From positions 27,345-91,344 of IMG/VR virus record IMGVR_UViG_3300028888_000093: DNA of 64,000 bases. One strand, written 5' to 3'. The stretch's first letter is position 1. Each line of letters begins with the position of its first letter. Below, in pieces: positions 1 to 64,000 of the stretch. The notes below the pieces were generated by a model. That model did not search any database. It worked only from the letters and a program-made list of their open reading frames with translations, and was not told the DNA's origin. The stretch is from a virus (lineage: Duplodnaviria > Caudoviricetes). The translations under genes and the position numbers were made by a program.

Positions 1-1281
1 TTATGGGAGAGATTCCCGAATCCAATACCTTTTGACAGGAAAATAGCATACAATTTCCCAGAAAATTGCCACGTTTCAAGTATAGTTAGGGGTGGTTTGG
101 AAGACATTAAGTGGGAAGGAAACGGTTTTACACACACACCAAGCCCGAATAATCTTAGGTGTTGTAATAATGTCGGGTTCACATGTGATAGCAATTCTCC
201 GTTTACGAACATTGATTATCAATTGGCTGAATTCAGACATTACACAACAAAAACAGCAAGAGAGTATTGTAACAAGATGAGAAGGGGTTTCCCAGACCAG
301 AAGTGGGATGGTAGTAGAATACAAAACTTGATTGAAACAAGGTTCTTCAGAACAAATGAAATAACAAAAGAGAAAGTCGATATATTCAAAGAAGAATTAG
401 GAATCGATATGTCATATCTTTTACCTCATGTGTATGAAGGCCCTAAGAATGATGATATTAAAATTTATTCATTATGTTATGCTAAAAAGGATTTCAAATT
501 TTTAGAAGACAGTGTTGTGACACCATTGCAAGTTGGCGCGGCAAACGGAACTGAAGTGTGTTCCTTGAAAGACAATGTTGGAGACAATATTTCAGACAAG
601 AACTACCTTTATATTGAAAACACTGGTACGTATTGGATTTGGAAGAATGTACATGATTGCAAATACAAGGGACAGATGCAATACAGAAGGCCTTTAAGCG
701 GTGTTACTGAGGACATGGACTTTGACAAGGTTTTCGAGGATTATGATGTTATAACTTGTGAGCCATTTTATCATCCAGACCATAAGACGCCGACGGAAAC
801 AGAAAAAATGGTGATACCAGCCGACACGGTTGAACAAGGGTATGCTTTTTCAAATTGTATTGACGACCTTTTGATTTGCGAGATGGCAGTAAAGATGCTT
901 TATCCAGAATATTCGGAGGATTGGGACAAATACATAAAGAATGGGTCGAATCTGTATTATTCAAACGGTTTCATAATGAAGACTGAAGATTATGACAGAT
1001 ATTGCGATTTTCTATTCAAATGCCTTGACATGTATCTGCAATTCTCAAAGATACATGACAAACAGTCGCTTGAAGAACATGTGAGATACAATCTTGAGGT
1101 TGGAAAATATCCGAGATACCAGAATCCAAAACAAATACCGCAGGAGGCTGTAAAGTGGCAGATGTCGATTCTTGGCTTCCTGAGCGAGAGGCTTTGGACG
1201 TTGTGGTTGCAGCACAATTTCAATCAGGACAGGATTTACAAAACCCCATACATTAAAATGGAGGAGAATATGTATACATAG
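1..1281 (+). CDS. Glycosyltransferase-associated fusion protein (GT92/GT2-like C-terminal part + DUF4422-like domain), 5'-truncated by the window edge
   Basis: Frame is open from base 1. The HYTTKTAREY..K..RGFPD motif resembles GT92-like C-termini; 'PLQVG..DNVGDNISDKN..IENTGTYWIWKN' and 'GFLSERL' are DUF4422-type motifs. Confidence 0.7.
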   Translation, partial: LWERFPNPIPFDRKIAYNFPENCHVSSIVRGGLEDIKWEGNGFTHTPSPNNLRCCNNVGFTCDSNSPFTNIDYQLAEFRHYTTKTAREYCNKMRRGFPDQKWDGSRIQNLIETRFFRTNEITKEKVDIFKEELGIDMSYLLPHVYEGPKNDDIKIYSLCYAKKDFKFLEDSVVTPLQVGAANGTEVCSLKDNVGDNISDKNYLYIENTGTYWIWKNVHDCKYKGQMQYRRPLSGVTEDMDFDKVFEDYDVITCEPFYHPDHKTPTETEKMVIPADTVEQGYAFSNCIDDLLICEMAVKMLYPEYSEDWDKYIKNGSNLYYSNGFIMKTEDYDRYCDFLFKCLDMYLQFSKIHDKQSLEEHVRYNLEVGKYPRYQNPKQIPQEAVKWQMSILGFLSERLWTLWLQHNFNQDRIYKTPYIKMEENMYT

Positions 1282-1324
1282 TTTGTTTTGGCTGTGTCAA
1301 GGTAGTACTTTTCATATTGTTTTT

Positions 1325-1358
1325 GGCAACACGCATGGTTGTGTGCTGCCATTTTTTT
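1325..1358 (+). terminator. Probable rho-independent terminator
   Basis: ggcaacacgc...gtgtgctgcc imperfect stem followed by a T7 run after the 1281 stop. Confidence 0.55.
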
Positions 1359-1366
1359 CAAGAAAA

Positions 1367-1375
1367 ACTATTTAT
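1367..1375 (+). promoter_or_regulatory. Putative phage late promoter motif ACTATTTAT
   Basis: Same 9-mer recurs on the sense strand upstream of many structural/late genes. Confidence 0.6.
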
Positions 1376-1401
1376 TATAATACAAAATAATTTTCAATAC
1401 A

Positions 1402-2115
1402 ATGAAGGATATTGCATTTGCATACCAGGAGGAAATACGATATTATAATGACAAACAGAGATTACATTCAAATGTGTTGAATATATTGGATTATATAGGT
1501 AAAGCTGGTTATGATAATTATGATGAGTATTATACTGATTTACAAGAATATCTTTTGAAGACACAAGATTATGAAATAGTTGAGGAACCAGAAATTAATG
1601 CAAACATACCAGTTCCTTACATAACAAACAACAGACCAGCGTTTTTGTATACTATCAATTGTGGCACAAATTATGCTTTTATACCTAACAGTATAAATGA
1701 TTACAGTTTAATTGAAGAATATGGGTATACACCTGTAAAACTCGGATATGATGGTTCAAATGGGCCGATATTGTCTTCTGATGGTGATTTAAGGGTATAT
1801 CTGGTTTATCCTGTAAGTATAGATTTGTCTTATGGGTATTTTTCTGAAAAAATGGTTTGTTTTTTGTCTAAATATTTTACCAACATAAACTTGGATAATA
1901 ATGATATAATGTTGGACGGTAAAAAAATAATAGGTGGTGCATCTACGGTTATGAACAATATGAGGGTTGTTGTATTTCAGATTAACTTCATCGACAAGCA
2001 AAGTGACATACAATCAATATGTGGGATAACGAATAAGATTCCTGGGTATATCGACAAAACGATACTTAGTGCTGTGGAATTTAAAAACGAATTTCTGACA
2101 TGGCTAAGAATTTAA
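1402..2115 (+). CDS. Lipoate/biotin-protein ligase (BPL/LplA/LipB fold)-like protein
   Basis: NNDIMLDGKKIIG matches the ND(I/L)xxxGKKxxG motif; 237 aa. Confidence 0.55.
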   Translation: MKDIAFAYQEEIRYYNDKQRLHSNVLNILDYIGKAGYDNYDEYYTDLQEYLLKTQDYEIVEEPEINANIPVPYITNNRPAFLYTINCGTNYAFIPNSINDYSLIEEYGYTPVKLGYDGSNGPILSSDGDLRVYLVYPVSIDLSYGYFSEKMVCFLSKYFTNINLDNNDIMLDGKKIIGGASTVMNNMRVVVFQINFIDKQSDIQSICGITNKIPGYIDKTILSAVEFKNEFLTWLRI

Positions 2116-4055
2116 TTATATATCCATTTTCGGATAATACAGTACAACACACAAAATCATCAACAGGCTCTACTGGCTATGCTCTGGTTAATGAAAAAAC
2201 AAACAGCACAAATGGTTATTTGGAACATGTGTTTTCAACTGGGGCCACAACCTATGTTTCAAGTTTTAATAATCTTGACCATGCTTCTGATGTCACCGTT
2301 GGAAAAATAAGAATTAATTCCATATCATCTGTTAATTTATATTTGGCTTTAACAAAGGGTAGCAATGCAACATTAAACGGTGTAAATATATTCGGAAAAG
2401 TAACAATCAACGGAAACACATATACTAGCAGTAGCTATAACCCAACAGGCAATGTTAGTACATCCCTTCAAACGCTGGCAATATCAAATGCCAATATAAA
2501 TCAAATATATTCATCAGTATCAGCCGCATCAATAGGATTGTCAATATCAACAACTGGTAGATACACAACAGACAGTGACAAAAACAACGACTCGTATCTA
2601 AGAATCTACAATGCTAATGTGACAATATCATATGATGATGTTTTCACTTGTGCTGTAAACGTGATATCTGGACATGGAATATCACAGGCAACTTGTTCTG
2701 ATAGTGATGTTATTGACGGTGGTTTGTGTACATTTAATGCATCAGTACAGGATAAATATGAATTTTATGGATGGTATGACAATGCAGACTTTGAGGGGAA
2801 TCCACTTTCAATATCTCCGTCTTTTACGACAGTGATAAGGGAGGATACAACGTTATATCCAATGGCTGTCAAAGAGGATTTTGTTCCACCAGATGAGGAC
2901 CCACAAAAGGTTTACTACCCATTAACAATATCGTCAATTAACGCAATAACAAATCCGACGAAGGGTACAACAAAGGTTGAAAGTGGTACAAGCAAAACGA
3001 TAACAATAACCCCGTCCTATCCCTTGTTGACTTTGGCTTTGGATAATGGTGTGGATATCACATCACAACTTGTTCTTTGTGGTGATACTATAAATGTGCC
3101 AACAGTTGCCATGGCGCCAAACGCAAACTATGGATTTACATTAAACGACAACACAAAATATTACACCTCCACAAACCAAGGGCAAAACAACAGTGCATCG
3201 GTATGCAGAGTTACATTTAATTTGCCTGTTGATTGTCTTGTGACATTTCAATACATAAATTACTCCGAAACCACGTACGATTATGGAATTTTCGGAAAAG
3301 TTGATGTTGCGTTAACAACAACAAACACTTCAGACAGTAATGCATATAAAATATTGTCACAAAGTTCAGACAATACACCAGATGCCAAAACATTAACATA
3401 TGAAATAGATAGTGGAACTCATTTCATTGATGTCAAATACAGGAAAAATGATGTGATAAATAGCAACAATGATAATTTGCAATTCAAAATATTAAGTATT
3501 GAGCCGATTGAAGCCGAGTCATACTATGTCTATGAATTATCAAACATAAACCAAGAACACTCTCTCACATTTGTTTTTGGAAATGTTGAGTATTATTTTA
3601 TCACATCACAGACAGACAGTAACGCTGGACTTTATCCTAACGGGCAAACAGTTGTGCTTCCAGGAGATGACTATAGGCTGACAATCATTCCAGAAAACAA
3701 TCGGGAAACAATAATGTTAAAGGACAACGACTATGATGTGTCGTCACAATTGGAACGTGTCGAAATCGAAACAGAAAAGGACGGGCAGACAATAACGGTG
3801 CTAAACTATGTCTATAGGCTTAATAACGTATCACAGGGACATGTGTTGACTGTTGAAACGACAAAACCAAACCTCGGATTTTCAATTAAAATAAACGGAA
3901 CCTACATGTCTGGAAATTTCTTTGTGAAGGCAAACGGGGCGTGGGTGCAAATACAGGCTGTAGATATATACGCACACAATGGCGTCAAATGGTTGGAAAG
4001 TCTGAACGATGTCATCAAAACCAACAACATATTGTTCGGAGGTAATATAGGATAG
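2100..4055 (+). CDS. Beta-rich virion/adhesin-like protein with an InlB-B/Listeria-Bacteroides-type repeat
   Basis: 651 aa, S/T/N-rich; 'YEFYGWY' repeat motif; internally repeated 'LxDNxxDxTSQL...YxYxLxNxxQxHxL' Ig-like modules. Confidence 0.55.
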   Translation: MAKNLIIYPFSDNTVQHTKSSTGSTGYALVNEKTNSTNGYLEHVFSTGATTYVSSFNNLDHASDVTVGKIRINSISSVNLYLALTKGSNATLNGVNIFGKVTINGNTYTSSSYNPTGNVSTSLQTLAISNANINQIYSSVSAASIGLSISTTGRYTTDSDKNNDSYLRIYNANVTISYDDVFTCAVNVISGHGISQATCSDSDVIDGGLCTFNASVQDKYEFYGWYDNADFEGNPLSISPSFTTVIREDTTLYPMAVKEDFVPPDEDPQKVYYPLTISSINAITNPTKGTTKVESGTSKTITITPSYPLLTLALDNGVDITSQLVLCGDTINVPTVAMAPNANYGFTLNDNTKYYTSTNQGQNNSASVCRVTFNLPVDCLVTFQYINYSETTYDYGIFGKVDVALTTTNTSDSNAYKILSQSSDNTPDAKTLTYEIDSGTHFIDVKYRKNDVINSNNDNLQFKILSIEPIEAESYYVYELSNINQEHSLTFVFGNVEYYFITSQTDSNAGLYPNGQTVVLPGDDYRLTIIPENNRETIMLKDNDYDVSSQLERVEIETEKDGQTITVLNYVYRLNNVSQGHVLTVETTKPNLGFSIKINGTYMSGNFFVKANGAWVQIQAVDIYAHNGVKWLESLNDVIKTNNILFGGNIG

Positions 4056-62756: not shown

Positions 62757-62921
62757 ATGTTGGAATCATATATGAAGAATATTAACAGGCAATACATAAA
62801 CACACTCCCACAAGGAGATGTGTTGGATTTTGCACATGTTTCCAGTAGTAATTATTCAATAGCGTTTGAACCGAAACAGGAACAAAAAAGAGGGATGAGG
62901 GATATTGGAGTTTTAATATGA
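62757..62921 (+). CDS. Putative leader peptide (54 aa) upstream of the tRNA region
   Basis: ATG 62757; stop lies ~40 nt before a terminator whose 5' arm is complementary to the last codons. Confidence 0.4.
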   Translation: MLESYMKNINRQYINTLPQGDVLDFAHVSSSNYSIAFEPKQEQKRGMRDIGVLI

Positions 62922-62962
62922 AATAAGGTGAGCACATAGGTTTCTAACCACAACATATTCCC

Positions 62963-63003
62963 AACCTCTGAAAAGTTTCCGAACAAATCAGAGGTTTTTT
63001 TTT
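62963..63003 (+). terminator. Rho-independent terminator/attenuator
   Basis: aacctctga...tcagaggtt + long T run. Confidence 0.75.
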
Positions 63004-63023
63004 ATGTTTAAATCTATGTAAAC

Positions 63024-63084
63024 TGTCATTTTGACATATAAGCATGACAAAATGTCATAAATTTAGTTTGGCATGATGTTTGCA
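63024..63084 (+). promoter_or_regulatory. Sigma-54 (-24/-12) promoter with two upstream TGWCA-N3-TGWCA boxes
   Basis: TGGCA-tgatgt-TTGCA at 63069-63084 with exact spacing; TGTCAtttTGACA 63024-63036 and TGACAaaaTGTCA 63045-63057. Confidence 0.7.
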
Positions 63085-63102
63085 TAAATAAAAAAACGAC
63101 AT

Positions 63103-63176
63103 GGTGCCGTTAGCTCAGTTGGTAGAGCGCATGTCTGTGGAACATGAGGTCGTTGGTTCAAACCCAACACGGCACC
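63103..63176 (+). tRNA. trnH: tRNA-His (GUG), encoded G-1:C73, no encoded CCA
   Basis: Full cloverleaf: gtgccgt/acggcac, gctc/gagc, catgt-ctGTGga-acatg, gttgg-ttcaaac-ccaac. Confidence 0.95.
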
Positions 63177-63232
63177 CGAAAAAAAGTTTGGAAGTTTCAA
63201 AAAAGATTTGTAATCTTACAAACACAAACGAG

Positions 63233-63244
63233 AGTTCTTTGAAA
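63233..63244 (+). promoter_or_regulatory. boxA-like antitermination element
   Basis: agttctttgaaa just downstream of a promoter-like TTTG-N20-TAATCTTA; resembles rRNA-leader boxA. Confidence 0.5.
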
Positions 63245-63274
63245 AAATGAAAATATAAAGTGATTGCTGGTGTT

Positions 63275-63686
63275 AATAGTGACACTACATGCATAGGCGA
63301 GAAATCCCTATGTAGAATCTCCCAAATTCGGTGGAAGGCCTTTTCCTATTGATAAGACAAGAAATGTGTATAAGAAAGGAACACAACACTAAACAATAAC
63401 GTGTAAGGACAATACCGAGCGAAAGTGATATAAAGACTTAGCCAAAGAAACTATATATCATCAATCGTGTAGAGACTGAACGGGAGATACCTAAATTGGA
63501 ATTGAATTCCCTATTAAGCATTGTTAGGTGATGCTGTCCCGAAAGGATGAAACAAGATGCAATTTCTTGAATAGGATTCTTGCAAGAATTTCAATATGGT
63601 AATGTCAGTCAAAGTCACAATAAGCATTTGTAAGAACTGTGGAGTTGAAACCACATTAAAAAACGTGTTGAGAATGCTTGACACTG
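63275..63686 (+). ncRNA. Group I intron (412 nt, no ORF) in the non-coding leader of a tRNA
   Basis: P1 ggtgtU/Gacact; P2; P3 tctccc(63318)/gggaga(63482); P4 ttcggt/accgag; P6-P6a; P7 gactga(63474)/tcagtc(63605); omega-G 63686; P10 atag/ctat. Confidence 0.85.
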
Positions 63687-63700
63687 CTATCACTTTACTT

Positions 63701-63847
63701 GCGCCCGTAACTCAGCTGGTAGAGTACATCCCTTTATACAGTTTGACATTTCTGCAAAATGTTTCAGATGCTGAAAGGAAAATTCAAGTTCGATTCTTGG
63801 AGCATCTGCTAAGGATGGAGTCGTGGGTTCGAATCCCACCGAGCGCA
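63701..63847 (+). tRNA. trnK: Intron-containing tRNA, most likely Lys (UUU); 74-nt insert at about 63736-63809
   Basis: gcgcccg/cgagcgc acceptor (one C-A mismatch), actc/gagt D stem, catcc/ggatg anticodon stem, gtggg-ttcgaat-cccac T arm; removing 74 nt gives loop CT-TTT-AA; A73 and U20. Confidence 0.75.
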
Positions 63848-63874
63848 CAATAATAACTTAAAAATTATATTAAT

Positions 63875-64000
63875 ATGGAAGACGGGGCAAAAACTAAAAG
63901 AATATCTTAAAAAAGATTTTGATTGGAATAATCATAAGAAGTATAGGAAATATTTTGATGACTGGTATTCAAATTTAACCGAAAATCAACTACTGTACTA
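63875..64000 (+). pseudogene. Small frameshifted or mis-sequenced phage gene, runs off the window
   Basis: ATG frame stops after 11 codons, but the +1 frame reads KLKEYLKKDFDWNNHKKYRKYFDDWYSNLTENQLLY. Confidence 0.4.

Follow-up and report, generated by a model that had tools for sequence, protein, structure and literature searches.

A group I intron relative ahead of a phage tRNA gene may be a non-splicing leader RNA released as a circle

In a tRNA array of a giant rumen phage, a group I ribozyme fold with all of its core helices lies directly ahead of a tRNA gene and interrupts nothing. The element descends from tRNA-type group I introns but differs from an intron in three respects: it lies in no host gene, its J8/7 is short, and its splice-site determinants lack conservation. 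We give roughly even weight to the reading that it is a non-splicing, released leader RNA, an exon-less descendant of mobile tRNA-gene group I introns. The unspliced element seems to be released whole, probably as a circle, because an RNA contig that joins position 63700 to position 63253 has a depth of ~72×, while the flanks are at 0 to 4×.

The window, that is, the whole 64-kb stretch of DNA analyzed here, is the last part of a 91,344-bp IMG/VR phage contig that is ~25% complete according to CheckV. Its source is a giant rumen phage of about 360 kb, whose nearest complete relative is a 361-kb phage (G001) with an 86% identical DHFR-thymidylate synthase. At the end of the window, tRNA-His is followed by a weak promoter-like stretch, the motif GTTCTTTGAAAA, the ribozyme and a tRNA that begins at 63701 (Table 1). 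An initial annotation had described an ORF-less group I intron outside any coding sequence, tRNA or rRNA, placed between a boxA-like site and a tRNA starting 14 nt past its end. These features are all present, together with a P1-like helix with a U·G pair, a P10 and a candidate omega-G, and ARAGORN and Pfam show no interrupted gene. Removal of the element restores no host gene, as ARAGORN with introns allowed gives only the His and Lys tRNAs, and joining the flanks yields a 36-nt hairpin. A tRNA remnant around the element was sought by eye and with ARAGORN, and none was found. The ORFs in the element have no Pfam match that passes the family cut-off; there are two weak sub-threshold matches (E values of 0.026 and 0.066), both to an 85-aa ORF extending into the tRNA. 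Both junctions between the element and its flanks are backed by independent assemblies, namely L001/L054 and the Logan contigs of an RNA run (X1) and a DNA run (X2). The ends of the insert in the tRNA-Lys gene are fixed by the uninterrupted orthologue in G001 (L002:9570-9643).

Table 1. Features at the end of the window (window coordinates)
Feature	Position	Strand	Basis
tRNA-His(GUG), upstream neighbour	63104..63177	+	ARAGORN; Rfam tRNA, 69.4 bits
Weak promoter-like stretch (TTGGAA, 17 nt, TAATCT)	63187..63216	+	Read from the sequence
boxA-like motif GUUCUUUGAAAA (also written GTTCTTTGAAAA)	63234..63245	+	Sequence motif
Proposed released RNA unit, 448 nt (ribozyme flanked by 22 nt on the 5' side and 14 nt on the 3' side), ends joined head to tail	63253..63700	+	X4 RNA contig
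Closing helix, 5' strand	63257..63269	+	11 of 13 positions pair with 63684-63696
P1-like hairpin (GGUGUU, loop AAUAGU, GACACU); proposed 5' splice site after U63274	63269..63286	+	Sequence, MFE fold
Ribozyme core (P2, P3, P4, P5, P5b, P6, P7, P8 and long P8 extension)	63290..63610	+	48 of 48 pairs; family covariation
J8/7, shortened (AAUGU)	63601..63605	+	Comparison with gene-hosted copies
P9 domain, ending in a second UGACACU copy and the candidate omega-G 63686	63611..63686	+	Alignments
Closing helix, 3' strand, spanning the candidate omega-G and the start of the proposed 3' exon	63684..63696	+	Fold, duplex energy
tRNA-Lys(UUU) with a 74-nt insert (63736-63809) between U35 and U36	63701..63847	+	Rfam tRNA, 50.1 bits with a 77-nt gap; ARAGORN with introns allowed

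The promoter-like stretch scores 8/12, under the threshold of a sigma-70 promoter scan that called nothing. It is the sole such stretch across the 91-kb contig and is homologous to the sequence that precedes another exon-less copy of the family (L050). A Bacteroidota-type promoter (TTTG..TAnnTTTG) was considered and rejected, with just two matches in the 91-kb contig and a poor match in the leader. Separately, a sigma-54-like -24/-12 pattern, TGGCA-N6-TTGCA, is found at 63069-63084, ~20 nt before tRNA-His.

Relatives of the element were collected with a 21-nt core word, which gave 20 stretches in other viral contigs, and two further scans added more. In the window copy, all 48 core pairs form, including the P3/P7 pseudoknot, and the core elements follow in the normal order from P1 to P9, unlike in the permuted intron-exon ribozymes that yield circular RNA, in which the 3' half of the core comes first. 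When the hand-assigned structure was placed on a 20-copy family alignment, 98.7% of the cells were paired and 12 pairs had changed on both sides. None of 500 shuffles matched this pairing and covariation, and slid controls paired at 35 to 46%. The search with group I models that the initial annotation had suggested gave 25.5 bits for RF00028, under its gathering score of 50, and the fold is backed instead by covariation among the 20 relatives. At the gathering threshold, Rfam has no group I match in the window or the 91-kb contig, and the RF00028 alignment to the window mis-assigns P8, P7' and P9. Because RF00028 was reported for none of the nine gene-hosted relatives searched, its score says little and cannot separate active from inactive copies. 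Neither a c-di-GMP-II aptamer nor a GIR1-type fold is among the Rfam families matched to E = 10 at 62900-64000.

Most copies of the family sit in the anticodon loops of tRNAs (Leu-UAA, Arg-UCU, Met/Ile-CAU and Ser-UGA) in rumen and gut phages, and removal of these tRNA-hosted copies restores a 7-nt anticodon loop. The junctions of most copies allow placement directly after a U, with an intron whose end, GUGGUA(A/G)G, terminates in G. The family guide is formed by the 4 nt directly before GC and P2 (GAGU, GGAU or GUGU), and the introns are about 460 to 780 nt long, with large peripheral insertions. One copy (L057:4324-4815, minus strand) lies inside a helicase-like coding sequence, the frame of which is continuous over the joined exons near the GGKS motif. 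The family comprises mobile introns. Peripheral modules are common to different copies (P5 of L002 with L060; P8 of L099b with L053), and the sharing of P5, P6 and P8 modules points to recombination among copies.

Several further observations concern the family as a whole. A member in a tRNA-Leu(UAA) gene (L097:2172 onward) has an ORF after the 5' strand of P7, starting MTKEEKAAIRGMMIGDSYLR, which may encode a homing endonuclease and so be a source of the mobility of the family. L092/L093 combine the GCCA form of the P7 5' strand with the CAGU form of the 3' strand, at the cost of two mismatches. Either natural recombination between family members or chimeric assembly could account for this, and the combination is a caution for metagenome assemblies that span the conserved core. 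A standard ARAGORN run misses the family, and a run with introns allowed misnames several of the split tRNAs: in L048, L059, L064 and L058, some intron-bearing tRNAs are labeled SeC(UCA), Leu(CAA) or Stop(UUA). Under the rule of U(-1) and terminal G, L048 and L064, and likewise L059 as judged from its flanks, are tRNA-Arg(UCU) genes whose intron follows U34. Suppressor tRNA calls in such phages need checking. In practice, Rfam at its gathering threshold and a standard ARAGORN run both miss the family.

The window copy itself offers elements from which a splicing reaction could be built. GGUGUU (63269-74) pairs with GACACU (63281-86) in a 6-bp P1 with U63274·G63281 at the proposed cut, AUAG (63276-79) pairs with CUAU (63687-90) in a 4-bp P10, and the candidate omega-G, G63686, is located 4 nt past the last P9.0 pair, as in the gene-hosted relatives that end in GUGGUA(A/G)G. 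In the MFE fold, the P1 hairpin and the outer closing stem form together, resembling an anticodon stem around a tRNA intron, and every helix is intact. All of this would be expected of an ordinary, active ORF-less group I intron in the loop of a leader hairpin, self-splicing at 63274/63275 and 63686/63687 and leaving AAAGUGAUUGCUGGUGUU joined to CUAUCACUUU. That the window, unlike the copies of L002 and L099, has a plausible P1 with U·G, a P10 and a terminal G speaks against a non-splicing RNA, and because of these three elements we keep self-splicing as an explanation that is unlikely but deserves to be taken seriously. It meets difficulties within the same sequence. The P1 hairpin lies 4 nt upstream of the family guide position, which reads ACAU and so has no G. 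The intactness of the core claimed by the initial annotation holds for the helices, with 48 of 48 pairs, but not for J8/7, which in the window is 5 nt long (AAUGU) instead of the 7 nt (AAAGAGA) of gene-hosted relatives; the Rfam consensus is AAGAUA. In group I structures, J8/7 helps to dock the P1 substrate helix. Given this role, the short J8/7 may point to lost or altered catalysis. The P9 domain of the window copy, as aligned, is also without the terminal hairpin of the family, CUAUGGUAACAUAG, and without its GUGG strand.

These departures are not peculiar to the window. Seven copies of the family, that of the window included, interrupt no gene. Four stand ahead of tRNAs in tRNA arrays (the window, L002 in G001, and L099a and L099b in a 302-kb contig), and three ahead of protein genes (L050 in G002, L096 and L100). 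A boxA-like GTTCTTTGAAA occurs 10 to 60 nt upstream of P2 in all six exon-less copies whose 5' flank is present, and in none of the gene-hosted copies with flanks inspected. Antitermination signals of the boxA type act in leaders and are bound by NusB and S10. The candidate motif matches 10 of 13 positions of the boxA consensus of Bacillus subtilis rrn operons, AUGAUCUUUGAAA; boxA is an RNA signal bound by NusB (PMC13753749). An identical 12-mer is contained in the rRNA spacers of Mollicutes (probe in PMC7110721).

Of the seven exon-less copies, six have a J8/7 of 4 to 5 nt, and its sequence takes at least three forms (AAUGU/AAUAU, AAAG and AAGA). Each of the 17 clear gene-hosted copies with data has a 7-nt J8/7, AAAGAGA or similar. 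L061, a further copy, combines a tRNA-like context with an odd guide and a short J8/7. The helices of the exon-less copies are retained, with 45 to 48 of the 48 core pairs formed, except in L099a, in which 41 form, a count we put down to the alignment. The splice-site elements have fared differently: the four tRNA-array copies have no G at the family guide position (ACAU, UCAU or UUGU), and the terminal G is missing in three of the four. Both L099 copies read GUGGUAAA in place of the GUGGUAAG of their relatives and have no G·U pair, which also counts against self-splicing.

The copies ahead of protein genes differ in this respect, as L050, L096 and L100 keep both the guide GUGU and the terminal G. 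Downstream of each of them is a terminator-like hairpin (e.g., GGGUUUCACAAACCC) with a loop, UCACA, that is complementary to the guide, and a U or A/U run after the hairpin is clearest in L050 and L096. Such a hairpin could act as a switch between ribozyme folding and transcription termination. The combination raises the idea that the ribozyme is active without splicing, cleaving itself from the transcript or sensing guanosine or GTP to tune downstream expression, a role conceivable for these copies ahead of protein genes. For the window we consider this very improbable. No downstream site in the window matches the guide, and the ends of the RNA described below, between A63252 and A63253 and between U63700 and G63701, resemble neither attack by G after a U·G pair nor cleavage after a terminal G; moreover, the joint between them contains no extra G.

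G001 carries the element at the same site (L002) and is the sole orthologue found. The flanks of L002 and the window are nearly identical except in the closing-helix strands and the splice-site region, and the ribozymes are ~75% identical by eye. In P7, L002 carries the alternative version of the family (GCCA/UGGU), which amounts to a compensatory switch. Its P1-like hairpin, AUGAUAG/CUAUCAU, contains no G·U pair, and an A takes the position of G63686 of the window. The closing helix, in contrast, is kept in this orthologue that has neither G·U pair nor terminal G, an arrangement that speaks against self-splicing. In the window, AAAGUGAU (63257-64) pairs with AUCACUUU (63689-96), and the flank duplex has an energy of -24.6 kcal/mol, compared with -12.0 ± 3.1 kcal/mol for shuffled flanks, with none of 500 shuffles as good. 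The G001 helix is paired at 13 of 13 positions, and its energy is equalled by 9 of 500 shuffles. From the window to L002, the helix changes from C-G to U-A at 67/86 and from G-C to A-U at 69/84, and one G-C pair becomes G·U. A closing helix in the two L099 copies was rejected, since 55 and 106 of 500 shuffles do equally well, and this weighs against the reading as a released RNA.

In the window, the closing helix pairs G63686, the nucleotide that self-splicing would need as its terminal G, with C63267, and its inner part can use the second GACACU copy (63680-85) instead of the guide copy, which leaves the splice-site elements partly sequestered. To look for intron-less alleles that keep the hairpin, as the initial annotation had proposed, IMG/VR and JGI metagenomes were scanned with exact patterns, one for the leader and one for the 3' flank together with tRNA-Lys; only the phage of the window and G001 were retrieved, and no such allele was among them. 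Four other matches to the leader pattern fall within sequence that looks coding and appear to be fortuitous, and a search of GenBank phages gave tRNA similarity only.

RNA evidence comes from assembled contigs with mean depths, which are too coarse to split spliced from unspliced pools; X1 and X4 are RNA runs of one sheep-rumen sample, and X2 is a DNA run. Copy-specific contigs were defined as those without mismatches across the variable regions of the element. Their depths are 247 to 431× in X4, in which the flanks are at 0 to 3.6×, and 1,252 to 3,568× in X1, in which the flanks are at 118× and 48×. The DNA run is roughly flat (54 to 83×) where only the contigs of the window phage lie. RNA of the element is thus more than 10-fold above its flanks, and the retention emphasized by the initial annotation is borne out, with the element at the same site in the one available related phage and its RNA accumulating far above the flanks. 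Independently of this copy, the conserved core segments (63381-63528) have a summed depth of 66,000 to 107,000 in a rumen RNA run, in which the flanks are at 118, and of 170 to 300 versus 82 in the DNA run. The high summed depth indicates that RNA of the family as a whole is very abundant in rumen metatranscriptomes.

The form of the released RNA is suggested by one X4 contig (record 28), 192 nt in length and with a depth of 71.7, which runs from 63579 to 63700 and then from 63253 to 63322 without mismatches. The joint contains no ambiguous letters, both proposed splice sites are unspliced on this contig, and its depth is about 20-fold above the flanks. The 63700/63701 boundary is the 5' end of tRNA-Lys, i.e., the RNase P site, and A63253, on the other side of the joint, is opposite, four nucleotides outside the closing helix. 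The ribozyme was considered as the maker of the joint and rejected, as attack by the terminal G would connect 63686 to 63275. The joint is also unfit for ribozyme chemistry because there is no G before 63253, none at 63700 and none added at the joint. Circularization by an intact intron produces a circle that excludes the intron (PMC12336344), unlike the joint found here.

Two readings of these data compete with release of an unspliced RNA. Self-splicing could draw on the excess of depth within the ribozyme in X4 (247 to 431, versus 72 at the junction contig), which would fit a pool of excised introns. No spliced joint, no intron circle (63686 to 63275) and no deletion joint (63252 to 63701) are among the contigs listed, and the unspliced form is abundant, although contigs cannot show absence. 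The initial annotation's notion of a working intron that yields a functional hairpin is not supported here: L002 has neither the G·U pair nor the omega-G, J8/7 is truncated in nearly all exon-less copies, and the sole RNA junction is on an unspliced contig. The suggested link to processing of the downstream tRNA remains plausible in a sense different from that originally proposed, since the released RNA has its 3' end precisely where RNase P cuts to generate mature tRNA-Lys at its 5' side.

The second competing reading is that the element is a decaying relic without function, whose intact look comes from recombination with active members, whose RNA is abundant because it is compact and nuclease resistant, and whose joint is a library or assembly artefact or the product of incidental ligation. 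The splice-site determinants and J8/7 do decay differently from copy to copy, exon-less copies and gene-hosted introns have peripheral modules in common, the terminal hairpin is deleted in the window copy, and the junction contig is a single one. Recombination with gene-hosted introns could indeed keep the helices intact without selection on the exon-less copies. Against this, neither G001 nor the 91-kb contig of the window phage holds another family copy to recombine with, and the boxA-like motif, intact helices and a short J8/7 recur together in at least six phage contigs. The closing helix is maintained via compensatory changes, and an excess of about 20-fold over the flanks is too much for a rare artefact. 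We therefore regard a relic as quite unlikely.

We somewhat favor a covalent circle as the form of the released RNA, with restraint because the joint is not shown in X1 and contigs cannot prove covalent circles. The joint is not listed among the contigs of X2 or of X1, the latter containing linear paths only. The circle reading is limited by having its joint in one contig of one run; a tandem duplicate in a strain or a reverse transcription artefact could also have produced it.

A plausible route to such an RNA can be outlined from the arrangement of the locus. The array would be transcribed through the element, and Nus factors at the boxA-like site may hold the first strand of the closing helix close to the polymerase until its partner has been transcribed, a step modeled on a proposal for rRNA operons. 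The transcription complex as an RNA chaperone is the stated subject of PMC8632103. The closing helix would then bring both ends together. RNase P, in generating the 5' end of tRNA-Lys, would leave a 3'-OH at U63700, and a second nuclease would cut four nucleotides outside the helix to give the 5' end at A63253. With the helix keeping them adjacent, the ends would resemble a broken hairpin loop, and a ligase that joins the 3'-OH to the 5'-phosphate would seal the two short tails into a loop, giving a stable circle of 448 nt.

An RNA ligase (PF09414) is present in all three complete relatives, and the G001 enzyme has an N-terminal OB domain. No ligase was found on the 91-kb contig of the window itself, ~25% of the genome. 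RtcB was rejected as the ligase, being absent from four of four records. In G001, the ligase gene (L071:1465-2712, minus strand; L071 is G001:5511-9083), which encodes the OB domain PF21189 and PF09414, has a VWA/DUF7788 gene and a DUF932 gene as its neighbors, a group that may be an RNA repair module. At least ten tRNAs of these phages carry inserts of 54 to 108 nt in the anticodon loop (window 63736-63809, L054, L002, L047 and L099). Many of the inserts begin (U)AUACAGAGUAAACUGU and end in an acceptor-like stem and a GGUUCGANUCC T arm, a tRNA-like element nested in a tRNA, and they start with AUA, like the 5' end of the released leader RNA (A followed, after the cut, by AUAUAAAG). Because the inserts are far too short for group I or group II introns, their removal likely depends on a cut-and-ligate pathway, and a ligase activity of this kind is accordingly plausible in these phages.

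If the element is a released leader RNA, its conserved activity is not splicing, and the circle may be functional or a tolerated by-product of a structured spacer. It is tempting, though doubtful enough to be put forward only tentatively, to assume a phage lineage of group I-derived RNAs that gave up splicing, carry a boxA-like signal and are excised by host enzymes from tRNA or mRNA leaders, here to be sealed into a stable circle by a phage RNA ligase. The ribozyme would then be a shell with a new role, e.g., as a stable scaffold, a decoy or a guanosine-binding module.

The papers searched contained no account of exon-less copies within the tRNA arrays of phages, of the boxA-like motif ahead of them or of a circle of this kind. 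The element is best placed by comparison with better-known systems. Its relatives are of a type that we take to be that of the bacterial introns in tRNA anticodon loops (Azoarcus tRNA-Ile and cyanobacterial tRNA-Leu(UAA)), subgroup IC3. The set of helices and the conserved strands (e.g., GUAGAGACU..ACGG and AAUUCGG) are alike, and the relatives of the window copy, as bacterial tRNA introns do, lie in the anticodon loop after position 34 or 36 and have a short P1 with U·G and a terminal G. The window copy, in contrast, interrupts no tRNA and lies between tRNA-His and tRNA-Lys, is about twice as long through extensions of P5, P6, P8 and P9, and has a short J8/7 and a displaced guide.

Work by Lee and colleagues, which appeared in Science in 2010, reportedly described an allosteric group I ribozyme in the 5' untranslated region of a Clostridioides difficile mRNA, in which a c-di-GMP-II aptamer is present and splicing builds a ribosome-binding site. 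It is, to our knowledge, the one bacterial case of a leader-borne group I ribozyme. In both systems the ribozyme is part of an untranslated leader and not inside a gene, but the window element matches no aptamer family, has a tRNA downstream, and its splicing is unsupported.

In full-length circles of group I introns, the terminal G is linked to the nucleotide with which the intron begins, and exon sequence is absent (PMC6274462; Azoarcus circles, PMC13168695). The RNA proposed here would likewise be a circle holding a whole group I ribozyme, but its joint, from U63700 to A63253, includes 36 nt of flank and does not suit ribozyme chemistry.

The closest parallel in layout is offered by the leaders of rRNA operons, in which boxA and a long-range processing stem surround a large structured RNA; in archaea, the excised pre-rRNA is circularized. 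In both cases a boxA or boxA-like motif is followed by a 5' strand, a folded RNA and a 3' strand, with release at the base of the stem. In the phage, however, the cargo is a ribozyme fold and one end would be made by RNase P, and the binding of Nus factors and the ligation are presumed. Group I ribozymes are almost always described as introns that solely remove themselves, whereas here the fold is kept where nothing needs repair. If our reading is correct, RNase P, phage RNA ligases and the expression of tRNA arrays would be linked, and the element would exemplify how, in nature, a self-splicing intron can become an independent non-coding RNA of phages, possibly a circular one.
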